A stretch of 64,000 nucleotides of DNA from a virus. Location of the stretch: IMG/VR virus record IMGVR_UViG_3300042691_044733, positions 62,980 through 126,979 of that record, one strand, 5' to 3'. A program made the translations under genes and the position numbers. Shown in pieces: positions 847 through 64,000 of the stretch. Below the pieces are notes generated by a model. It saw nothing but the letters and a program-made list of their open reading frames with translations, was not told the DNA's origin and did not search any database. Numbering within the stretch: position 1 is the first letter of the stretch; each line of letters opens with the position of its first letter.

Positions 847-3111
847 TTATAATATACAACTAAAATCTTTTTGTTCTAAATCAGTTCTTATTCCTAAATC
901 ATCAGTATCTTCTTTCTGTTCTCCAAACTCATAAAGAGTTTTCATTTTAAAATCTCCAAATTTACTTTCATCATTTAAAATGGCTTGAAAAAAATCTTGA
1001 AATAATTCAATTCCAGTTCTAAGATCTTCAAAATTTTTACTATTTAAATTCTCTAAAACAGGAGTTCCAAAAAATTTCTCCATTATAGCATTAAAGAATT
1101 CTATAAGTTGTTCAATAATTGAAGAATGTTTTTTCTTTATACCTAATGTCTTTTCATATTTTTCTAAATGTTTTTGATATGCTTCTTTAAGTGCTGGTTC
1201 ATTTGCTACTAAAAAATCATACATTGGACGTAAGTAATCATGTTTTTCATCAACAATGAATATTTTATCTGGATCAAAATTAGGAGTTAATGTTAACATT
1301 ATTGTACCTACAAGATCAGGAAATATTTCAATTGTATCGTCTTGATTATAACCTCTAGAACCAACACCTTTAATTTGATAATTTTTAAAAGCATCAGTAG
1401 GATTAACAGCTAAATCTTTAATAAAATTATGAATATCAGCTCTTAATTTTGGATCATTTATATTTAAAGCATAATCAATACTATGACCTAATTCATGAGC
1501 AAACACATAATGAAAGTGATTTTTTCTCCCTCTCATTGTACTTTTAAAAGCTATCTCAAAAGGAGATTGCATTTCTTCATATGAAGCTAAATCTAAAGAT
1601 TCTAAAAAAGTGCTTGTAAGATATCTATGCAAACTATAAAGATTTGGATAGGTATCAAGAATATAATCTTCAATTTTAGAATGTGTTTCAACTAACAGTC
1701 TATTGAAATTTTCCATGTATTCTTTTGTAGGAAGTCCTTTTTTTTCTGTAGCATTATATATAAGAATTTCAATTAAATGACGTTTAACCATCATGAATGA
1801 ATCATCTTTTCTATAAACTTTATCAGTATTTTTATAGTAATGTTCTGCCATGTCAACTACAGAACTATTTAACTTTTTAATATCTTCTTTTGTTATTTCT
1901 AATTCTGGGTATGCTTTCATAAAATCATAAATAGCAACATTTAAAGACATGAATGAATTAGTTTGCTGAAGAAGTGAACCTTTTATTAATGATTTTATAG
2001 GATTTATTTTTTGAGCTGTTTTTCCGTCTCTAGAATTAATTTTATTACCATCTACTCTAAAAAATCCAGTAGCATCTTCAAGAATAATTAATCTTGCTAA
2101 GTGAGCATTTGGTAATTGTCTTAAAAGATTTAAAATAGCATCAAATTCTAAATCAGAATAATCTTTATGACTAAGTAAATTTTCTAAAAATGTTTTGATT
2201 AAATTATCCTTATCTTTTGGTTTATTCAATTTTTGAGCATCTTCTTTTAATTTATCAGCATAAGAATTAAAAAGATCTATTAAGTCTTGGTACTCATCAT
2301 CCGAAATATTTAAATTATCCTTTTTAAAAGTTTCGTTTTGAATTGTTGCATATAGAGATTTAATAGTATCAAGAGCACTTTTCATAAAAAAGCTGCTAAC
2401 TAATTTTTCAGAAACTATTCTTTCAGCAATCAGTATTCGTTGTTGTTTAAGTTTTTGGCGAACTAATTCTTTTTTTGATTTTTTATATTGTTCTTGTTTA
2501 ATTTTATTTTTTTCATCTCTTAATTCATGATAAGAAAGGATATCAATTTTAATTTTGAATATCATTTCTCCAGTGTCAATCCACATATATGTATTACCAT
2601 CTGATTCTTTTCTGATGATAGCCAGATTGGGTTTATCATTCAACAAAAATCCTTTTTCAGTTTCAGAAGGTAAACGTTTTCCTTGAGAAGATGTTACATA
2701 AGTTTCCCATTTTGTTTTTTCAGAATTAGTTAATACATAGGCATACCTGTCATTTATAAACTCTATCCCGAAATTAACTTTTAAAAAGTTTCTATATTTT
2801 TTAGACCTTGAGTTTGTTATAGTAGGATATGGATCTTTTTCGGCACCATATTCAAATAATTCTTCTACTCCTGGTTTTATTTGTGGTTGTGATTTTAATT
2901 CCTCCAAAGAGATATTAGTTTTGGAGAGCAAAGTGATATAAGTACTAGTTTCTAAATCTAATTTAGAAGGATAGTTATTCAACCCATTTCTAGATTGCCA
3001 CATTGCTATATCAGCAGCAAGAGATGAAATGTATGGTTCAGTAAAATTAGATCCATATAATTGTTTATATAGACTCTTGAAGTCTTTACTTGTTTTTAAT
3101 ACACAGTGCAT
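847..3111 (-). CDS. Virion cargo protein with zincin-like metallopeptidase motif
   Basis: ORF track 847..3120; ATG at 3111 (MHCVLK) fits better, 2 nt after the RNAP stop. FAHELGH motif at 1483-1497. Lies inside the cargo cluster. Confidence 0.65.
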   Translation of the reverse strand: MHCVLKTSKDFKSLYKQLYGSNFTEPYISSLAADIAMWQSRNGLNNYPSKLDLETSTYITLLSKTNISLEELKSQPQIKPGVEELFEYGAEKDPYPTITNSRSKKYRNFLKVNFGIEFINDRYAYVLTNSEKTKWETYVTSSQGKRLPSETEKGFLLNDKPNLAIIRKESDGNTYMWIDTGEMIFKIKIDILSYHELRDEKNKIKQEQYKKSKKELVRQKLKQQRILIAERIVSEKLVSSFFMKSALDTIKSLYATIQNETFKKDNLNISDDEYQDLIDLFNSYADKLKEDAQKLNKPKDKDNLIKTFLENLLSHKDYSDLEFDAILNLLRQLPNAHLARLIILEDATGFFRVDGNKINSRDGKTAQKINPIKSLIKGSLLQQTNSFMSLNVAIYDFMKAYPELEITKEDIKKLNSSVVDMAEHYYKNTDKVYRKDDSFMMVKRHLIEILIYNATEKKGLPTKEYMENFNRLLVETHSKIEDYILDTYPNLYSLHRYLTSTFLESLDLASYEEMQSPFEIAFKSTMRGRKNHFHYVFAHELGHSIDYALNINDPKLRADIHNFIKDLAVNPTDAFKNYQIKGVGSRGYNQDDTIEIFPDLVGTIMLTLTPNFDPDKIFIVDEKHDYLRPMYDFLVANEPALKEAYQKHLEKYEKTLGIKKKHSSIIEQLIEFFNAIMEKFFGTPVLENLNSKNFEDLRTGIELFQDFFQAILNDESKFGDFKMKTLYEFGEQKEDTDDLGIRTDLEQKDFSCIL

Positions 3112-3113
3112 AG

Positions 3114-6100
3114 TTAGCAATTTAAAATATTATCTTTTTTCTCCTGTGGAAAGCTATCCCAGATTTCTTGAGTGTACCCAATTTCTTTTAAGGTTTTACC
3201 TGAACGTACTTTTAGGTTATTTACATCATCAAAGATAGTGTTATTTACCTCACGATTTGTAGGAGTATCTTCTTTTTTTACAAGTTTTCCAAATTCACCT
3301 GAATTATAAAAATATGGATTAATAAACTGGAATTCTTCATACAGTCTTTTTGATAAGTACATGTAAGTTTTATACCCTGGGGCATCTGGAATTTTTGGTT
3401 GATTTAATAAACTCTCTGATCCAGTATAGCCAAGTAATGAGTTACCAACACCACGTTCATCAAATACTATGATTTTACCAACAGATTGTTCTTTTAATTT
3501 CATTATAGCATCCTCAATAAGTTTGATATTATCAGAGTAAGTTTCATCCGTCATTATATCTTCTATAGAGGAAACCAAAGCTCCTTTTTTAGTAGGTATC
3601 CCAAAAATATTTTCTGGGTTAATCATAGGCTTCTTAACCTCTTTATCCTTATTATTAATCTTTACAACTGTAACATCTATTGTTTCAGCTGCATTTCTTA
3701 AAACAGTGTTAGAGTAATTAGCACCCATGTAAGCAAGTTTATTTTTAGAACCTGGAATAAAATCATCATAAATGAACAATGCATTAGGTTGAGAAGCAAG
3801 AGTTATATTTACGTTGTCAATTAATGTTTTAATTGCAGGTGCAAATCTCTGTTTTGGTTGTGCTTTAACATTATCTGTTTTTGGAGTATAGAAGAATACT
3901 TTAGGTGAATAAACAGATCCATAAAAGAAACCTTTTGTTTTATCTTCTGCAAAATATTTTTTAATTCTTTTTCTTGCTTTGTTTACAATAGGTTGATCTG
4001 CATCTACATTCTCATTATTAGAAGCAACGGGTTCTTTATAAAGTTTAACAAAGAATGCTTTGTATTGATCTAAATATTTTTTAGATTCATTAGAACTGAG
4101 AATTCTTTCTGCTCTTCTTTTTATAGGTTCCATTAACATGTTCATTAAATCAGTATTAACAATTCTGTTAATTGCAAATGCCCCCATTCTATCTTGACCA
4201 GATTGATAAAATGCAAACATTGGAAACATATTAAATAACATACTTATTTTATCATTATCTATTTCATTCTCAACTTTCTTAACATTTGGATCTGCAAGTT
4301 TTATTAACTGTTCATGATAAATATTTGCTTTATCTGGAGTTAATTTATTTTCTGTAAATTTCAAATTTGTTATTGCTCCTGATCTAGAAGGTAATAATGT
4401 TTTAAGCAAGCTATATTCATCTGTTAATTCAGGATAATGAGAAATTACATCTACAACCTGATTTGCAAATCCTGTAGGACTATACATCATAGCAACAATA
4501 TTGAATTTACTTAATAATGCAAAGTCTCTAAGAAAATCTTCATAAAGATATCTTTCGGTACGTTTTTTAAATTCAGAGTCTGTTTCTCCTTTATTTTTTT
4601 CATACATTGAATCCAGCATTTTTACTTTCTTCTGATATTCTCTTGTTTCTTTAAACTTGGTAAAAGATATCTCAGAACGTAAAAATTCTCTTTCATAAAT
4701 GAATTTTACATACTCATTAAAGTTTCCTCTGAAAGGATCTAGGTTAATTTCAATAGGTGATAATCCTTTTGCTCTATAAGTTGGTTTACTATAGATCTGA
4801 TTTTTAAAATCTCTTTCAAGTCTTATTAAATCCACATATAGATTACCATCTTTTACAAATGCACCATTTTGTAATACAGTTTCGCTGATTACTTCTTTCT
4901 CTACAGGAGAATATTCTTTATTTGTAATTCTAAGTGACTTGTAAGGTTTTTTAGGATCAAATTCTATGTTATCAATGTATTCTTGGAAAGCATAAGATAA
5001 AAAGTCATTTCTTAATGCTTCTGCAAACTTTTCTTTTGTTTTCTCATCTGTACCAAAGAAAGCTCCAAATGTTTTAAGTGGATCCAATGACTCAACAGTT
5101 TCTTCAACAAACTCTACTAGTCTGGGATGGTTTCTAAGTTTAAAGAAATTACTCAAGAAATTAATTGCAAATCCTTGAACTTCAAAACTACCTATAGGAG
5201 AATTCAAATCAATACCTCTAACAATTTCATAAGGGAATCTTCTGTTATTAACAAGATCTATTTTCTTATCAAGTTTTTGTTTTGCTTCATACATGTTTGT
5301 TGATCTTGAAGTATCAAAGTTAGTATTCATTTTAATTTGAGTAACTGCTTTTGACATCTCTTCAATTTCAAGAAAATGTAAAAATACTTTTAAATCCTCT
5401 TCGGTCAGATTTCCATCAAACTCATCTAATCTTTTGTTGAGGTTCTCAAGTGTAAATACTTCTTTATCAAGTTCTTTATTTAAATTATTAGACAACAAGG
5501 TATTAAAAATTGTTCTACTTTGAGTATAGTTACTATCAAGTTTTTCAAGTCCTTTACCAAGTTGTTTTTGTACAATAGGATGAGATTTTAATACCATTGC
5601 TCTTGCTCTGGTTCTAAATTCTGTTCTTGGTATAACTCCAAGTCCAAGTGCTGGTGCAAATGTACTTTTGGTTAATTGCTGTTTTTTGAGATAATCTCTA
5701 ACCATTGGTTGGGATAATAAAGCAACTGCATGCTCTATAGGTACACCTGCTTGAAGCATAAACAACATAGAAGAGGTTAATTCTTTATTACCTTGAATAT
5801 CAAAGATCCACGCATCTTTAGCAACGTCAACCCAACCATTAATAAGCTGTCCTATTAAAGTTGAGATTTTGTTTTTCTTGTTTGTATCATAAAAATGAGA
5901 CAATGAAATATTACCATTTATTGTATTATGCGGTAGCAACATGGTTTGTTGTAAAGTATAATAACCAGATTTTTCTGTTCCTAGTGTAACTGTAGGTGAC
6001 ATGTAAGCACCAACCCTGTTAAATATTACGTTGTAGGTATTATCAACAGCACCTTGACCAAGAGTTGCTTTACCAACGTTATTTGAACTTTGTTTATATC

Positions 6101-43786: not shown

Positions 43787-45415
43787 TTAGAACGATCCAC
43801 CTGTAATAGGGTTTCTCATTACAATTTTCAAAACTTTGGTTGGGTCTTTTACCCAAATTGCTGGCATTGTTTGAGTCATATAAACTCGGTAACCATTGAA
43901 TTGACCAGAACTTTGGAATCCTTGGTGACGACCCATGTAATCCATTGTTCCGTTTTGGTACCACCATTTCAGTTGATTATCCCATTTAAGTTTCAACAGG
44001 AAGATGTTATCATTTGTATTATCAGTAATATCAAAGATAACAAAGTTGTAACTTGAAAGTGGGAAACCATCAATGATTGGGTTCTCAATATCATTTGTGT
44101 GAACGTTATCAAATGCAGGGTTAATTACAAACTTAACGTTTGCTAAGAATGGGATCACATAGCTAGTAAATGCAAATCCAAAGTTCAGATCCATTCCTTT
44201 ACCAGTGATAGCACCAATACCTGCATCACTTGCAGCTTGGATAACCAAACCAGAGTTAACTGCTTCTTTCTTGATAGCTTCATTAACAAGTCTCATACCT
44301 CCAAGACCAGTCTGAACAATCAGTTGTCTTTTTGGATCAGGACCAGCAAACTCAACTTTACCATTATAGAAGTTATAAAGCTCTGATCTAAACAAATCAA
44401 GGTTAAAACCTGATTTATTATAAATACGTTTGAATGAGTTGTCAAGTTGTTTCCAAAGACCTACAGACAATCTTACATCATCTGGACCATCTTGTTTAAC
44501 CTTACCACCTTGTCCCCACATCAGATATGTTTCAATATCATTAGAGATTTTAGACAAGTGACGTGCTTCAAGTGTAGTCAAGAAAGTTCTGCTAAGAGAA
44601 CCATTTGATACTGCTTTTTTGAAGAAGTCTTTACCCATTTTCTTAATGTAAGAATCCAAGTTAGTGATAGAAGGGTCAATGTTCTGGTCAAAGTTTCTCC
44701 AGATTTCTGTAACAGGTACAGTACCATCTGCATTCATTCCACCTTTAATCATCATGTCTGCACGTGAACTTACGGAGTAATGTACGTGTGCTTCAGCACC
44801 ACCCACAAAATTGTAGTACTCACGGAAACCTGATTGAACTTGAAGGTCGGAGAAACGCTCACCATACTCTCCTCTTGCAGAACCTTTTCTGAAGATTTTA
44901 GTTCCTGAAGCAAGATATTTGTTATCAAGGAATTTAACACTGTCGTTGTTCACAAGTTGAACTGTGTAAATAAAACCTTCACTACCATAAGGGATGATGT
45001 CCTCGCTAGGAACTACATACATCTCAGCACCAGAGTATTTATCATAAGTGATGATATCACCATGACCAAATTCTCTACGTGAAAGTTTTATTTTAAAAGT
45101 AGTACCATCAATACCTTTAGTGGTATTACTTGGTTCAATATCTTCCAAAATGTAAGGAAGATCCTGAACTACAGGTACTTGCCATTTATATTCACCACGT
45201 GGGTGGTCAACTTCAATGACATTTTTTCCATTAAAATTGGACATTTGGTACAGAGGCATTTCTACCTTTTGTGCCATTGCCCACAAATCAACAGGACCCA
45301 TATCCATAGGTTCTGATGTTCTCAGCATATTCTGAAGGTGATAAGAATCAACATGTGAAGATGCTTGATAATTTGTATCACGTAGGAATATACCATTGTT
45401 TAAAACTGGTGTCAT
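43787..45415 (-). CDS. Major capsid protein
   Basis: 542 aa. Follows portal and scaffold, followed by a strong hairpin. IETYLMWG..GLWKQL and TGLGGMRL motifs resemble crAss-like MCPs. Confidence 0.85.
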   Translation of the reverse strand: MTPVLNNGIFLRDTNYQASSHVDSYHLQNMLRTSEPMDMGPVDLWAMAQKVEMPLYQMSNFNGKNVIEVDHPRGEYKWQVPVVQDLPYILEDIEPSNTTKGIDGTTFKIKLSRREFGHGDIITYDKYSGAEMYVVPSEDIIPYGSEGFIYTVQLVNNDSVKFLDNKYLASGTKIFRKGSARGEYGERFSDLQVQSGFREYYNFVGGAEAHVHYSVSSRADMMIKGGMNADGTVPVTEIWRNFDQNIDPSITNLDSYIKKMGKDFFKKAVSNGSLSRTFLTTLEARHLSKISNDIETYLMWGQGGKVKQDGPDDVRLSVGLWKQLDNSFKRIYNKSGFNLDLFRSELYNFYNGKVEFAGPDPKRQLIVQTGLGGMRLVNEAIKKEAVNSGLVIQAASDAGIGAITGKGMDLNFGFAFTSYVIPFLANVKFVINPAFDNVHTNDIENPIIDGFPLSSYNFVIFDITDNTNDNIFLLKLKWDNQLKWWYQNGTMDYMGRHQGFQSSGQFNGYRVYMTQTMPAIWVKDPTKVLKIVMRNPITGGSF

Positions 45416-59531: not shown

Positions 59532-60598
59532 GGTCTTAAACGCATTATGTAATATCCTAGAAAAATAAAAGAATCTGAAGCACTTGCTGGATTAGCAGTA
59601 AAAAACAAATACTGAGTAACCGTCCAGTCAATAGAGCTACTTACTCCTTGAACAGTTGTTAGTATATCATCACTTGCAATGTTAGATGATGTTACATATC
59701 CATGTGTAGTTGCTCCTCTAACAAAAAAATCTCTTTTCATTTGTCCAATAGGATTTGTTGTTGCTAAAGTTGTAGATGCTAATAAAGCTGCACCAACTAA
59801 AGTATTAGCATTATTAACATAAATACCCATAGAACAAGTAGAGTTTGTTCCAGTATTCCTTCTAAGTCTTTGTCTGACTAATATTCCATCACCATTTTGA
59901 AAAGTATTTGCTGGGATAGTAACTGTAGCTAAAGCATTGACACCTGTAGAACTAACAGGTAGGTTAACCTCAGTAAAGTCAGTCCATATTTTAGTAGAAC
60001 TTCCTGTATAAGCTACAGTAAAGTTAGGATAGGTTCCTGTTACTGAAATATTAGCTCCAGCATTAATAACAACAGTTTGATCTGGTGCAGTATTAGTAAT
60101 AACAATTGTACCTGTACCTGTAATAGGATTCGTACCAGACAACCCAATCCCAGTTCCTGCTGTGAATCCTACAGAAGTAACAGTACCAACTGACCAGGAT
60201 CTATCAGCAGATAAATCAAAACTAGTACCATTTATAGTCAATGTCCTAGTTAATGGCACACCACCTAAGCCAGATAAAGAATAAACTGGAATGTTTAATA
60301 CATTACTACCAAAAGTTGCTGCTCCACTAGACCCAACTGTAGTTAGGGAGATAGGGTCCTGTTTTGAATTAAAAGTAACCCAATCTAAATTAGTAAGATA
60401 CCCACTCACTAATGCTGTAGCAGCAGGCATAGAAATATTAGGTGTGGCTCCACCAGAACTGGCAAGAGGAAGAGTTGCGGTTACAGCACTAACTCCGCCG
60501 CCCCCACCTGTTAATGTTTTAATTTTTCCATCTGGACCATGAATTACAATAAACCCAGGTCCAAACATATTTCCATTTATGTCAACAACTTGCATCAT
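59528..60598 (-). CDS. Tail fibre/head fibre-like protein
   Basis: Gly/Thr/Ser-rich repeats (VTATLPLASSGGATPNIS, SGYLTNLDWVTFNSKQ, TRTLTINGTSFDLSADRSW) typical of phage fibres. Confidence 0.7.
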   Translation of the reverse strand: MMQVVDINGNMFGPGFIVIHGPDGKIKTLTGGGGGVSAVTATLPLASSGGATPNISMPAATALVSGYLTNLDWVTFNSKQDPISLTTVGSSGAATFGSNVLNIPVYSLSGLGGVPLTRTLTINGTSFDLSADRSWSVGTVTSVGFTAGTGIGLSGTNPITGTGTIVITNTAPDQTVVINAGANISVTGTYPNFTVAYTGSSTKIWTDFTEVNLPVSSTGVNALATVTIPANTFQNGDGILVRQRLRRNTGTNSTCSMGIYVNNANTLVGAALLASTTLATTNPIGQMKRDFFVRGATTHGYVTSSNIASDDILTTVQGVSSSIDWTVTQYLFFTANPASASDSFIFLGYYIMRLRP

Positions 60599-60894
60599 GA
60601 TATATATCCATAAACTTCATAATCTGTACTAGCAGCAGTTGTAGTAATAACCAAAGAGTCCCCGTTTTTGAGACCATAAGGAGTACTATCAGTAAGAACA
60701 TCCCCAGCAGCTAAAGTAAAACTATAAATCTTTTTAGTACCAGAAGCCCTAACCAATTCTAATGTAACAGTATTAACACTAGTAGAGGTTACCCTAATAA
60801 AACTAATACTAGCTCCACTATTAGGATTACTAACTGTAACAATAGTATTTGCACCAGGAGCAAGCACTCCTTCACTAATTATTGTATTATTCAT
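60595..60894 (-). CDS. Small beta-rich structural protein
   Basis: Likely start MNNTIISEG at 60894 (ORF track to 60909); coupled to the fibre gene. Confidence 0.55.
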   Translation of the reverse strand: MNNTIISEGVLAPGANTIVTVSNPNSGASISFIRVTSTSVNTVTLELVRASGTKKIYSFTLAAGDVLTDSTPYGLKNGDSLVITTTAASTDYEVYGYIS

Positions 60895-60950
60895 ATATAG
60901 AATATACAAAAAATTTTTAAAAAATAAATTTTATTGTATGTTTTGCTTTG

Positions 60951-61004
60951 GAGGGGGTCATATATGTGACCTCCCCCCTCTCTTAAATATTCGGGGCTAC
61001 CCCC
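60951..61004. other. GC-rich hairpins at the late/early strand switch
   Basis: GAGGGGGTCA-tatatg-TGACCTCCCCCCTC and GGGG-cta-CCCC in otherwise AT-rich divergent intergenic DNA. Confidence 0.5.
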
Positions 61005-61109
61005 TAGCAAAAATCACCAAGGAAACAACCTATTAGGATAGAACATATCAAGGAAAATGTTTTGAAGAAATTTTTGTTTGGAACTCATCATTGAACTGAA
61101 ATCAATGTC

Positions 61110-61292
61110 ATGAGCACAACACAACAACGTAAAACACGTATTGATCTTGAGGTGGTTGCACCTCAAGAGTTAATCAAGATCCAACAGAAACTTAATACTT
61201 GGCACACAACCAAGACACTTGTTAAGTTTGAGACCCAACCATTAGCAGATGGTAGGATCCTGTTCAAGATCATCAGAGTACAAGAGGGTTAA
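61110..61292 (+). CDS. Small early protein
   Basis: 60 aa between a motif copy and a hairpin. Confidence 0.7.
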   Translation: MSTTQQRKTRIDLEVVAPQELIKIQQKLNTWHTTKTLVKFETQPLADGRILFKIIRVQEG

Positions 61293-61301
61293 ACCTCTTT
61301 G
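61281..61301 (+). terminator. Hairpin overlapping the stop codon
   Basis: AAGAGG-gttaaa-CCTCTT followed by T/G-rich sequence. Confidence 0.6.
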
Positions 61302-61369
61302 TTGTGTTTGACAGGAATGCAATGACATTATATTCGTTTGGAACTCAATACTGTAAATAAATAAATATT

Positions 61370-61618
61370 ATGAAACGTTTCAATTTAACAGCAGCAATCA
61401 TTTGTGGAGTGAGTTGTATTTATTACATGCTTGCATTCTGCAACAATCCACAACAGTTCACTGAGAACAGTGAGATGCATGTCACATTGTTCATGACATG
61501 TATCACGGGACTGTTATTCTTCAGCATGTCTGCATTACTTGATGATGCAAGAGAACAGATAAGTGAGAAGAATGATATAATCTTAGGTCTTCACAAGAGA
61601 CTGAGAGATAAGGGGTAA
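61370..61618 (+). CDS. Small early membrane protein (2 TM)
   Basis: 82 aa with two hydrophobic segments. Confidence 0.7.
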   Translation: MKRFNLTAAIICGVSCIYYMLAFCNNPQQFTENSEMHVTLFMTCITGLLFFSMSALLDDAREQISEKNDIILGLHKRLRDKG

Positions 61619-61626
61619 AACCCTTT
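61610..61626 (+). terminator. Hairpin overlapping the stop codon
   Basis: AAGGG-gtaaaa-CCCTT. Confidence 0.5.
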
Positions 61627-61677
61627 GAATATTATGTTTGGAACTCATTAATGTTAATAAATTAAATATTTAATCCA

Positions 61678-61878
61678 ATGGTAGAAACAATTCAAAACAC
61701 CAGTAAAGTGCCAACCAAAGTTGTAGCACGTAAAGCAAAAGAACTCAACGTACTAACAATCCTGAGTATCAAACATGCAGGACCACGTTCAACCAAAAGT
61801 GTTAAAGCACTGGTTGTCATGGAAATAACCATGAAGTTCACTGATGAAGAAATGAATAAATACAAAAGAAAGGGGTAA
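61678..61878 (+). CDS. Small basic early protein
   Basis: 66 aa between a motif copy and a terminator. Confidence 0.7.
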   Translation: MVETIQNTSKVPTKVVARKAKELNVLTILSIKHAGPRSTKSVKALVVMEITMKFTDEEMNKYKRKG

Positions 61879-61892
61879 ATCCCCTTTTTTTT
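61869..61892 (+). terminator. Rho-independent terminator
   Basis: AAAGGGG-taaat-CCCCTTT followed by a T8 tract. Confidence 0.8.
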
Positions 61893-61906
61893 AAATCTTT
61901 TAAACC

Positions 61907-62062
61907 ATGAAAATACAATTAGTTGTTAATGACATTATGGTCTATCAAGTCATGGGTGAAACACCTGAGACCAAACTCAAAGCAATTGAGTTAATTATTG
62001 ATGAATTAAAACTCATGAAGAGCACAGAACTCTTAAAACTTAGCAAGATTGGAGAGACATAG
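61907..62062 (+). CDS. Small early protein (51 aa)
   Basis: Not in the ORF track. MKIQLVVNDIMVYQVMGETPETKLKAIELIIDELKLMKSTELLKLSKIGET; AT-rich leader; stop lies inside a hairpin. Confidence 0.65.
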   Translation: MKIQLVVNDIMVYQVMGETPETKLKAIELIIDELKLMKSTELLKLSKIGET

Positions 62063-62078
62063 TTCTCTCCTTTCTTTT
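62051..62078 (+). terminator. Rho-independent terminator
   Basis: GGAGAGA-catagt-TCTCTCC followed by TTTCTTTT. Confidence 0.75.
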
Positions 62079-62127
62079 AATTATGTTTGGAACTCATTAT
62101 GGATAATAATCATTAATACATACACAC

Positions 62128-62553
62128 ATGAAAACAGTTTTAAGTTTAAAGCCAGCAGGTTCATTCCTTAAAGACCGTAAGGTTGACGGAGTAACAACAC
62201 GTGACCGTAGATACCGTTATGAGGTTCACGGAGAGAGTTCTGCTATAGAACAATACAAACAGGATATTGAACGTACCTCTGATGAAGGAGATAAGATCTT
62301 CCCACAGGGTGAGGAACGTGAAGGTAAACTGTTGTATTACACCTGGGAACCAATTCCTAATGGTGTCAAATTGATCCGTAATGAAAGGAGCAAATCCTGG
62401 TATGCAGATCTTGAAGACATGGATACCATGAACAAGATGCTGAAGAAATACGGAGAGATCGGTAAACTCATGGGGATTAAAGAGTTTAAGAAAACATTCA
62501 TCCCAAAGGTTGAGGAAGAACAAGAAGAAACAACCGATCTTGAGAATGAATAA
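62128..62553 (+). CDS. Early protein with acidic C-terminal tail (probable paralogue of 62883..63359)
   Basis: 141 aa. RYRYEV..EREGKLLYYT; tail EEEQEETTDLENE. Confidence 0.75.
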   Translation: MKTVLSLKPAGSFLKDRKVDGVTTRDRRYRYEVHGESSAIEQYKQDIERTSDEGDKIFPQGEEREGKLLYYTWEPIPNGVKLIRNERSKSWYADLEDMDTMNKMLKKYGEIGKLMGIKEFKKTFIPKVEEEQEETTDLENE

Positions 62554-62584
62554 AAAGTGGGGAGCAATCCCCCTTTTTATTTTT
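62552..62584 (+). terminator. Rho-independent terminator
   Basis: AAAAAG(T)GGGGA-gcaa-TCCCCCTTTTT with a GNRA loop. Confidence 0.8.
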
Positions 62585-62597
62585 ATATTTGGAACTC

Positions 62598-62750
62598 TTT
62601 AGTGATATTACATTTTTCCTTAAATCATAGACAGAAGACATAAGACATTATACTCACTGACAAAATGACAAAAGTGAGTAAATACTGGTATTCCAGTGGT
62701 GAGCAATCAGCACTTCACAATATCAACTCTGACAACATGTCAGTTTTATA
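62598..62750 (+). ncRNA. Putative structured small RNA (GACA-rich)
   Basis: Lies between two promoter motifs; several hairpins and six GACA tetramers; ends in a hairpin plus T4. An alternative 51-codon ORF (62665..62820) is not excluded. Confidence 0.4.
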
Positions 62751-62882
62751 TTTGGAACTCTGTAGTGGTCTTAAGTTTCGTGAATATACAATGACACAAA
62801 CCATTAGGGATATAGAGTAATATCACTAATCATGTAAAAGAATACTCTAATACACACATAAACATTTTAAAATTTACATCAA

Positions 62883-63359
62883 ATGAAATTGAGATTTTTA
62901 AACAGCTACAGAGCATCGGAGATGACACCTGAAGGTAGAATCACCAAAACCCGTTTCCGTTATGCGGTAACACAAGCTACTGAGGAAGAACGTGCTATGT
63001 TCAAAAAATGGAAAACCCAAGATGGTGAGGATTACTATCGTGAGGAGAAGGGTTTACCAATCCATGTAACTTCGGTATTTTATGCAAATGAAATTACCAT
63101 GAGAGGTTACAAAAGAGAGGACAACACTGTTGGGTTCAGCATTGATGACAGCAATGTAGACAAGATCACCAGCATGATGTCAGAGTTTGGAAGTAATCCT
63201 GCAATAGCAACAGAACTTGCAAAGATGGCAATTGCAGAGAGATCTAAAGGTATGGCACTTGACATTGAGAAAATCAATGATAAGAATGCTGAACCTGAGA
63301 ACAATGCTCCTGAACATGCACATGCAGGAACTGATGGTGAAGGACTTGAAGGAGAATAA
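62883..63359 (+). CDS. Early protein with acidic C-terminal tail
   Basis: 158 aa. MKLRFLNSY..RFRYAV..YYREEKGLP; tail GTDGEGLEGE. Confidence 0.75.
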   Translation: MKLRFLNSYRASEMTPEGRITKTRFRYAVTQATEEERAMFKKWKTQDGEDYYREEKGLPIHVTSVFYANEITMRGYKREDNTVGFSIDDSNVDKITSMMSEFGSNPAIATELAKMAIAERSKGMALDIEKINDKNAEPENNAPEHAHAGTDGEGLEGE

Positions 63360-63390
63360 CCAGGGGTGGTTAGATAGTTAGTTGGATAAG

Positions 63391-63424
63391 AATGGTAGTG
63401 TTGTAATGACACTACCATTTTTTA
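63391..63424 (+). terminator. Rho-independent terminator
   Basis: AATGGTAGTGT-tgtaatg-ACACTACCATT followed by a T-tract. Confidence 0.8.
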
Positions 63425-63523
63425 TTTATCTACCTTAACCCTTTAACTCTTTTACTCTTTTACTCTTATTTGATTGACTCATATCATTATTTTTAAAAAG
63501 TTATTAACAAATGATGCTAATTA

Positions 63524-63555
63524 TTTGGAAATGTCAAAATTATTCACTAACTTTG
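63524..63555 (+). promoter_or_regulatory. Bacteroidota housekeeping-type promoter
   Basis: TTTG-20 nt-TAACTTTG. Confidence 0.7.
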
Positions 63556-63851
63556 TAAAAATAACCCTGTACAGGTAAGTAGTCATTCAGATTCTAAATA
63601 GGGTAATAATCAATAAAATCCTTACTGGAACACAAGGAAATAATAGAGGAAAAAACTTGAACCAGAAGAGAAGAATAAGATTAAAAAAGAGATTTAATAG
63701 TTGAATAAAAGGTTTAAGTAATGTGAGCTAAGTTGTTGATTATCAATGGAAAATCCCCAACCACCTCAAACAACATTCTAAAAACCTTAAAATTTCCTCA
63801 TTTCAAAAAACTCTTTCGAGAGTATAGCTATTAATTAATTAACTCATTCAA

Positions 63852-64000
63852 ATGAAACCAAACATCACATACAAATCTGTGATCCCTAAAGGTTTATCTC
63901 TTAAGAAAAGAAATGAATTCTTTCACTCTTTAGATAAACAATCACAAAGACTTGAAATAGCATGGGATTCATTACAGCTTGTACTATCTGGCATGAAAGG
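63852..64000 (+). CDS. Hypothetical protein, N-terminal fragment
   Basis: ATG at 63852, open to the window end (MKPNITYKSVIPKG...). Confidence 0.55.
   Translation, partial: MKPNITYKSVIPKGLSLKKRNEFFHSLDKQSQRLEIAWDSLQLVLSGMK

Follow-up and report, generated by a model that had tools for sequence, protein, structure and literature searches.

We analysed a stretch of viral DNA of 64,000 nt (hereafter, the window), which is the last 64 kb of the 126,979-base virus record IMGVR_UViG_3300042691_044733, rated complete, and we focused on a cassette of about 160 bases that lies between two promoter-like motifs, here named P1 and P2, upstream from a gene for a protein of 158 amino acids (aa). The best-supported reading of this cassette is an early non-coding unit of a crAss-like phage, a kind of unit already seen in phage phi14:2. 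The cassette belongs to a set of units headed by the same motif, holds no credible open reading frame (ORF), folds into hairpins, contains 13 nt with perfect complementarity to the 158-aa gene's leader, and has ORF-less counterparts in the same slot of other lineages. As to its function, we tentatively favour an early non-coding RNA, or a long leader made from tandem promoters, which would act by the 13-nt pairing on the message of the 158-aa gene.

The features considered in and around the cassette are the following:

62556..62580, + strand: terminator hairpin and T-run of the upstream 141-aa gene (62128-62553), with the stem at 62559-62572 (-9.1 kcal/mol).
62584..62605, + strand: P1, the first promoter-like motif, TATATTTGGAACTCTTTAGTGA, of a sub-variant common to P2 (pattern match; putative promoter).
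62599..62611, + strand: TTAGTGATATTAC, the 5' arm of the 13-nt inverted repeat I10, which is perfect (from the repeat scan).
62629..62648, + strand: AGACAnn heptad tandem repeat, 2.9 copies by TRF, with three GACA, predicted to be unstructured.
62651..62680, + strand: hairpin 1, TACTCACT/AGTGAGTA, with an 8-bp stem and a 14-nt loop, GACAAAATGACAAA (-9.3 kcal/mol, z score -4.5).
62665..62820, + strand: 51-codon ORF, probably not a gene, as judged on homologues (none) and Pfam (none).
62683..62725, + strand: hairpin domain 2, including the block TACTGGTATTCCAGTGGTG and the inverted repeat ACTGG/CCAGT (from the fold energy).
62729..62747, + strand: perfect palindrome CTGACA-ACA-TGTCAG followed by TTTT, a weak terminator-like hairpin directly before P2 (from the terminator scan).
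62747..62768, + strand: P2, the second promoter-like motif, which heads the 158-aa gene (0 mismatches to the pattern; one copy of repeat D2).
62817..62829, + strand: GTAATATCACTAA, the 3' arm of repeat I10, placed within the 158-aa gene's leader, where it overlaps the stop of the 51-codon ORF (from the repeat scan).
62883..63359, + strand: the 158-aa early gene, whose homologues mark the syntenic slot, with a strong terminator at 63388-63422.

A first-pass annotation, made from the letters of the window, had described here a cassette between two promoter-like motifs and without a convincing ORF, and this was confirmed by a motif scan and an ORF check. The pattern TWTNTTTGGAACTCNNTANTGG, searched with at most 3 mismatches, gave six matches, all on the + strand (61073, 61333, 61633, 62082, 62584 and 62747), against 0.39 expected, and none of 100 shuffles reached six. 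At the same six places the motif takes the extended form T[AT][TC][GA]TTTGGAACTC..YA.KG, and its core, TTTGGAACTC, is present in the whole record at those six + strand sites plus one site on the other strand. We read the motif as a putative promoter because it is placed after terminators and before ATGs. Precisely, in the cassettes carrying small ORFs (60, 82, 66 and 141 aa) the ATG lies 33-42 nt after the motif core (n = 4), and in the cassette starting at 62584 the first ATG, at 62665, lies 77 nt after the motif. Each unit is ended by a terminator-like hairpin with a T-run, and there are 14 such sites in 60500-64000 against 1.7 expected.

The 51-codon ORF starts in the loop of hairpin 1 and runs through the terminal hairpin with its T4 and through the perfect copy of the motif at P2. 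When its translation was searched with phmmer against 1.84 billion representatives, only the sequence itself and three repeat proteins were returned; these three were treated as artefacts because their scores sum over 4-11 stretches. Pfam gave no match to it. The ORF that the first-pass annotation gave as a caveat is present, but neither homologues nor in-frame conservation were found for it, and the sequence supports the view of the cassette as a non-coding unit without a credible gene.

The folding energies were compared with those of shuffled sequences. None of 200 shuffles folded as well as hairpin 1, whose loop contains two GACA plus the ATG of the 51-codon ORF. The segment 62686-62725, which holds AGTG.TGA-gcaa-TCA.CACT, has -12.1 kcal/mol (z -2.7), and the palindrome at 62729-62743 has -5.7 kcal/mol (z -2.6), the neighbouring terminators having -9.1 and -18.2 kcal/mol. 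The heptad segment (62606-62650) has -0.7 kcal/mol and z +0.26. For the whole unit (62606-62750) we obtained -28.3 kcal/mol, the z scores being -2.2 (+ strand) and -0.4 (- strand). Among the hairpins proposed earlier, those at 62651-62680, at AGTG.TGA-gcaa-TCA.CACT and at CTGACA/TGTCAG are borne out by energy and z score, whereas the stem ACTGG/CCAGT is displaced by the domain 62686-62725 in the minimum-energy fold. Rfam 15 (4227 models, run on positions 60500-64000 of the window with E up to 10) gave no match in the cassette.

The complementarity between cassette and leader is a new feature, absent from the first-pass annotation. Among 300 dinucleotide shuffles of 62598-62920 none gave a perfect inverted repeat of at least 13 nt (the maximum was 12), and likewise none of 300 shuffles of the cassette reached a complementarity to the leader of 13 nt. 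The whole segment 62598-62920 folds with -65.4 kcal/mol (z -2.9), with 0 of 100 shuffles as stable, and it is closed by the 13-bp stem in both the minimum-energy and the centroid fold. Counted from P2, the leader of the 158-aa gene is about 115-130 nt long. A second complementarity was noted in this region: the first bases after P2, CTCTGTAGTGGTCTTAA (62758-62774), are 76% complementary, with 8 perfect bp, to 62897-62913, i.e. codons 5-10 of the 158-aa ORF (I11), and this helix and the 13-nt stem would form a pseudoknot-like arrangement or mutually exclusive helices around the start codon.

Relatives were collected through the capsid gene (600 confirmed stretches, of which 80 were kept, at 80-89% identity). 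Their early regions are strongly diverged, and only one of the 18 large related records (G001) has detectable homologues of both genes flanking the cassette, at 27-28% identity. Profile-guided scans added locus L114 and 11 metagenome loci, so that 13 loci hold a homologue of the 158-aa gene. Used singly, the two flanking proteins found no relatives in viral contigs; the promoter pattern gave 23 single matches in viral contigs and no relative with several copies, and the exact core TTTGGAACTC was not enriched in the 18 related records. Among the loci with a homologue, each lineage has a repeated motif of its own, at the same position:

Clade A (G001/L113, L121-L126): repeated motif TATAACCTATTA.
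Clade B (L114, L116-L118): repeated motif ATTACAAAACCCAYTACAT.
L119: repeated motif AGTATGTAAGTATCTA.
L120: repeated motif TTTGTTATTTCATAACC.

We consider these motifs as candidate promoters for the virion RNA polymerase. As for their location, the arrays lie at 61073-62768 of the window, at about 6376-5035 (- strand) of L113, at 2314-2817 of L114, at 3-146 of L119 and at 290-810 of L120.

In clade A, represented by 3 distinct sequence variants, two copies of the clade's own motif stand 244-255 nt apart before the homologue of the 158-aa gene, and no ORF is kept in frame between them: ORFs of 50-62 codons do cross the second motif, but the frame in G001/L123 is not that in L122, and stops interrupt the alternative frames. 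In L119, the two motifs before the homologue are 128 nt apart. Moreover, the motifs flanking the ORF-less unit share a sub-variant without counterpart in the ORF cassettes, both in the window (ATTTGGAACTCT vs GTTTGGAACTCA) and in clade A (CCTATTAT vs CCTATTAC). The comparison shows an ORF-less unit in the same slot of two other lineages, clade A and L119. The leader of the 158-aa family is long in all the lineages examined, with estimates of about 80 nt in clade A and about 100 nt in clade B.

At the level of sequence, the link between the spacers is thin. In L117 a 140-nt spacer without a motif of its own precedes the promoter of the 158-aa homologue; its block TACTGGTATTACAGCGGTG matches TACTGGTATTCCAGTGGTG of the window at 17 of 19 positions, a score that none of 1000 shuffles reached and that stood out alone among 22 comparisons, and its block GTACTGATAATCAGTGGGTTAA matches the clade A cassette at 20 of 22 positions (0 of 1000 shuffles). 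The shared core is a small inverted repeat, the second hairpin of the first-pass annotation. It reads ACTGG/CCAGT in the window, ACTGA/TCAGT in both G001 and L117, and ACTGATT/AATCAGT in L122, so that changes in its inner pair compensate each other. The variant of L123/L124 breaks one pair, the generic pattern occurs about ten times in the genome, and a scan of viral contigs with the 19-mer pattern from the window and L117 gave 23 unrelated loci, mostly coding-looking, none with a gene of the 158-aa family. The consensus fold of the three clade A sequences contains little covariation (term -0.95). Rfam, run on nine related loci with E up to 0.1, gave nothing in the cassettes; elsewhere it gave tRNAs and one weak leader row. 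Beside these results, we observed that a hairpin stands immediately after both variant promoters of clade A (L113 at about 5285-4940, - strand; L122 at 1205-1563). G001 and L122 have different sequences in it with the pairing kept, and in the leader hairpin 5 pairs are changed on both sides; the ORF cassettes have no such hairpin.

According to the explanation that we tentatively favour, P1 (62584-62605) would start an RNA near 62600. This RNA would have, in order, an unstructured purine-rich 5' part with the AGACA heptads, two hairpin domains, and the weak hairpin with U4 at 62729-62747. Two products are expected because the terminal hairpin is weak: a discrete RNA of roughly 130-150 nt, and a read-through transcript into the 158-aa gene, for which P1 and P2, in tandem, would provide leaders of two lengths, one long and one short. 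In clade A the hairpin matching the terminal one is almost purely A-T, with no U-run directly after it; this and the weakness of the terminal hairpin make read-through from P1 plausible. The bases 62599-62611 would then pair with 62817-62829, about 55 nt before the AUG of the 158-aa gene, either in cis, closing a domain of 231 nt in the read-through transcripts, or in trans, when the short RNA meets the mRNA made from P2, and the pairing may tune the stability or the translation of this early gene. The use of the motifs as promoters, the making of the RNA, its end and the effect of the pairing are all steps that we infer from the sequence.

Several observations weigh against this explanation. 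The pairing is not conserved, since the best stretch of complementarity between cassette and leader in G001, L123, L122 and L119 is 6-8 nt, which is the chance level. A third, direct copy of a 14-mer, TTTAGTGATATTAC, is found outside the window at G000:C1:9032-9045, inside a 91-aa ORF on the + strand (by our own rough estimate, about 0.01 exact 14-mer matches are expected in this genome). The short unit 62606-62750 reaches a z score of only -2.2. No motif is common to the five spacers compared: the sole words that they share are 2 AT-rich 8-mers, whose positions are inconsistent. In clade B (L114, L116, L117 and L118) the slot holds a gene of 83-100 aa, with a structured leader of about 90-100 nt. 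Finally, the cassette has marks of local duplication: P1 and P2 are parts of a repeat (D2, 62581-62615 vs 62744-62778) with 86% identity, the cassette contains, at 62695-62708, a degenerate version of the upstream gene's terminator, AGTGGTGAGCAATC (D11, 93%), and there is an internal 26-nt repeat (D5, 73%), the three lying within 250 nt.

Because of these duplication marks, a neutral remnant of duplication remains a serious rival, although we regard it as unlikely. In this case, a tandem duplication of the junction between terminator and promoter would have left a second promoter copy and a decaying spacer, any transcript would be incidental, and the cassette would be at most regulatory DNA upstream from P2, with a possible operator in the perfect palindrome that stands 4 nt before P2. 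That cassettes are gained and lost between lineages is consistent with such an origin (the place of a 97-nt unit in L117 is taken by a 109-aa gene in L118), and so is the fact that in clade A, too, a perfect palindrome, TAAAACTAACGTTTTA, stands before P2, identical in G001, L123 and L122; a scan for it among 20 loci found only the record of G001 itself. On the other hand, the arrangement recurs in lineages whose flanking proteins are just 25-30% identical to those of the window, and the hairpins and the 13-nt complementarity exceed all shuffles. Furthermore, the alignment of the G001 and L122 cassettes shows blocks of 16-21 nt without any change, despite an overall identity of 61% (75% in the adjacent coding DNA). 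As a separate observation on these units, the 97-nt ORF-less stretch from motif to motif in L116 (362-460) and L117 (1409-1506) is well conserved though the neighbouring proteins differ much, and it has a long-range stem, TATGATTA/TAATCATA, plus an inner hairpin.

The first-pass annotation had proposed that a small early RNA shows GACA unpaired or in loops, so as to titrate a host RNA-binding protein or to decoy an ACA-type (MazF-like) endoribonuclease. The repeats on which this proposal was built are real. On recount, the six GACA are exactly at 62630, 62637, 62644, 62659, 62667 and 62731, and they form the densest GACA cluster on either strand of the window (6 copies, the next best having 3). 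Dinucleotide shuffles of 62606-62750 (145 nt) contain 1.51 GACA on average, with a count of six attained in 14 of 20,000; when the clusters of the 256 possible 4-mers are compared genome-wide, GACA ranks 6th, after AAAA, GCAG, TTTT, AGCA and CCCC. The triple of GACA with a spacing of 2-5 nt is unique to the cassette in 127 kb. Three copies fall in the predicted unstructured segment and two in the 14-nt loop. As had been stated, the copies are mostly in single-stranded or loop positions, but about four of the six, not five, are unpaired in the minimum-energy fold. GACA also occurs, as had been noted, in the neighbouring intergenic DNA and in terminator loops (61310, 61324, 62056 and 63408).

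Nevertheless, we consider a display of GACA to a protein improbable. The six copies are not independent, for three are in a 7-nt repeat (AGACATA by TRF, 2.9 copies, 62629-62648), two in an 8-nt repeat (TGACAAAA, 2 copies, 62658-62673), and the sixth within the stem of the palindrome CTGACA-ACA-TGTCAG. The triple was found in 0 of 18 related phage records, in which the reversed control pattern had 7 matches, and the syntenic cassettes of clade A, L119 and L117, as read from their sequences, have no GACA on the transcribed strand, so that the repeats appear to be specific to this phage. Genome-wide there are 233 GACA against 425 expected from dinucleotide shuffles; an avoidance of GACA was considered and rejected, the order-2 observed/expected ratio being 1.06 and the deficit reflecting a general scarcity of GAC/GTC, and hence there is no sign of the avoidance to be expected if a GACA-specific nuclease existed. 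No Rfam sponge family matches the cassette, and a candidate partner protein was not identified. Thus, of the earlier RNA reading, the unit from promoter to promoter without an ORF, plausibly an early non-coding RNA, holds on account of the absence of ORF relatives and of the slot in clade A and L119, and the sponge or decoy is not supported. The latter is less likely than the explanation by pairing, and the same is true of a real 51-aa protein and of an invertible promoter, which are treated below. We also considered a combination, in which an anti-host RNA would be transcribed in the first minutes from the lineage-specific promoter, presumably by an injected virion RNA polymerase, its AGACA heptads and GACA loop capturing a host RNA-binding protein or a sequence-specific RNase and its 13-nt seed controlling the neighbouring early mRNA; such a two-function RNA is likewise improbable in our judgement.

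Improbable, too, is a reading in which the 51-codon ORF is translated from read-through transcripts of P1, either as a genuine small early protein or as an upstream ORF with a regulatory role. Its ATG has an A-rich context like those of the other cassettes, the source record calls a gene here, and the identical 51-aa protein is in the searched library, in which it has no true relative. Its codon-usage score, 0.12, is within the range of the accepted small early ORFs (0.03-0.22), but 29% of spurious antisense ORFs score as high or better. The C-terminus, YTMTQTIRDIE, resembles WTLTQVLRDIE of the 100-aa protein encoded at this slot in L114, with agreement at 7 of 11 positions and E 0.003 against a database of 761 nt; this resemblance was taken as chance because the members of that family in L117 and L118 differ at that place, reading ALQKILDVVH and ALQKILNVVH. 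The other points against translation were met above, i.e. an ATG within the loop of the -9.3 kcal/mol hairpin, a course across a hairpin with T4 and across P2, and clade A ORFs that cross P2 in different frames broken by stops. In the same frame, the last codons of the 51-codon ORF form a mini-ORF of 9 codons (MTQTIRDIE, 62791-62820), which starts 40 nt after the core of P2, a spacing equal to that of real cassettes, and has its stop codon inside the 3' arm of the 13-nt repeat. It is possibly an upstream ORF coupled to the 13-nt pairing; the leaders of clade A lack it.

The last alternative, a switch in which a host invertase flips the segment with P2 between the 13-bp inverted repeats and so changes the drive of the 158-aa gene, is very improbable: the perfect arms (62599-62611 and 62817-62829), 205 bp apart, do enclose P2, exceed all 300 shuffles and have a size and layout like those described for Bacteroides invertible promoters, with 183-186 bp between 10-bp repeats (PMC8375218), but the phage record has no serine or tyrosine recombinase (no match to resolvase or integrase families), no comparable inverted repeat is present in the relatives, and such a switch would be unusual for the early region of a lytic phage.

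The closest known parallel to an early non-coding unit is in the Cellulophaga phage phi14:2. In crAss-like phages the early genes are transcribed by a virion RNA polymerase injected with the DNA, as three sources put it (10.1101/2020.03.07.982082; PMC10136315; PMC8375218). For phi14:2, the preprint by Drobysheva et al. describes two early, highly transcribed non-coding intergenic regions, at the junctions g004-g005 and g005-g006, and states that no common motif was detected upstream of the early transcripts (10.1101/2020.03.07.982082). The current record of phi14:2 has no accepted coding sequence in 2905-4601. Both phages are crAss-like and both have non-coding regions in a rightward early module among small genes; in contrast, the regions of phi14:2 span about 1.7 kb in total and their transcription was measured, whereas the present cassette has about 160 nt and its transcription is predicted, and the present phage has a sharp six-copy motif where phi14:2 has no common early motif. 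No repeat architecture common to the non-coding region of phi14:2 and the cassette was found, and beyond that preprint literature searches gave nothing relevant on early promoters or non-coding RNAs of crAss-like phages.

Other known systems resemble the cassette in single respects. Base-pairing small RNAs and long 5' leaders from tandem promoters are part of general bacterial and phage regulation. The cassette resembles them in having a 5' seed complementary to the leader of a neighbouring mRNA and tandem promoters with a weak hairpin between, but unlike base-pairing small RNAs its seed is not conserved in other lineages. The first-pass annotation had compared the cassette with CsrB/RsmZ (Rfam CL00106), and the two are alike in that a small structured RNA carries several copies of a short motif, unpaired or in loops; however, the motif is GACA, in five or six copies derived from 7-nt and 8-nt tandem repeats and not conserved in relatives, and GGA, of which CsrB/RsmZ display many in loops, is found in the cassette only inside the two TTTGGAACTC motifs. 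The analogy is not upheld by Rfam, in which no family, CsrB/RsmZ included, matches the cassette: PrrB_RsmZ has no row in 62606-62746, and its weak rows elsewhere reach 20 bits (61798-61892) and 16.3 bits (62481-62581), the cut-off being 44. ToxI-like type III antitoxins and the pseudo-ToxI decoys of phages have tandem repeats of about 34-36 nt. Like these decoys, and in the sense of the earlier decoy idea, the cassette may give a phage RNA with repeats by which an endoribonuclease of the host could be neutralised; unlike ToxI, its repeat units have 7-8 nt by TRF, no toxin gene lies beside it, and the neighbouring proteins match no family. Phage crAss001 has an early TROVE protein, of the Ro/Y-RNA type of ribonucleoprotein. 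TROVE (PF05731) had no match in the present record at E up to 1, the controls being positive.

The value of the cassette may be seen against this background, since early non-coding transcripts have already been seen in one cultured crAss-like phage. Together with its syntenic counterparts, it offers a compact object with defined edges (motif, hairpins, next motif) in a fixed slot before a conserved early gene, and the concrete 13-nt pairing partner makes a vague class testable with reporters and compensatory mutations. Moreover, the related phages each have their own sharp early motif, a candidate promoter at which the virion RNA polymerases of the group may start.

As for the source, the capsid ORF at 43787-45415 (- strand) matches PF23898 Crass_capsid, the major capsid family of Crassvirus, at 2.8e-31, and we read the phage as a divergent crAss-like phage. 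In the window the genes run leftward up to about 60,900, the - strand carries giant ORFs (3406, 1803 and 1669 aa), and the small rightward cassettes begin at 61,073. The capsid is closest, among deposited phages, to that of Leptolyngbya phage Lbo-JY46 (27.7% identity), and the sequencing runs in which words of this phage occur are labelled as freshwater or fungus metagenomes; the host need not be a member of Bacteroidota. The share of the sampled words present was 0.49-0.96 in six probably-DNA runs and 0.05-0.15 in four RNA runs, values that we did not use as evidence.

The small early proteins had no significant match in PHROGs or Pfam, and a nucleotide search of 62000-64000 against deposited phages gave no match, nor did a protein search with the product of the 158-aa gene. 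For the family of the latter, the AlphaFold2 model had a predicted local distance difference test (pLDDT) score of 63.6; the best E value in Foldseek was 0.25, with single-strand-binding folds among the non-significant rows, and VIA-align returned only helical-hairpin rows, with Z of at most 5.2.

A few observations concern the rest of the early region and the genome. Another 51-aa ORF (61907-62062) sits between the terminator-like hairpins at 61864-61892 and 62051-62070 and has no motif of its own, its expression being expected only through read-through from the cassette starting at 61633. After the terminator of the 158-aa gene there is an AT-rich, ORF-free stretch of 430 nt (63423-63851), starting with four copies of TTAACTCT (63435-63467), and G001 has at the matching position a non-coding stretch of similar length, rich in CT repeats; the stretch in the window may serve as an origin, as a promoter of a different class or as a further non-coding RNA. 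In the whole record CCGG is present 0 times against 21 expected, GGCC 4 against 70 and TCGA 37 against 111, which looks like an avoidance of restriction sites. ARAGORN found neither a tRNA nor a transfer-messenger RNA in the 64-kb window, and in clade A a tRNA gene lies about 1.2-1.4 kb downstream from the early cassettes (L123, 2676-2748; L113, 2973-3044, - strand).

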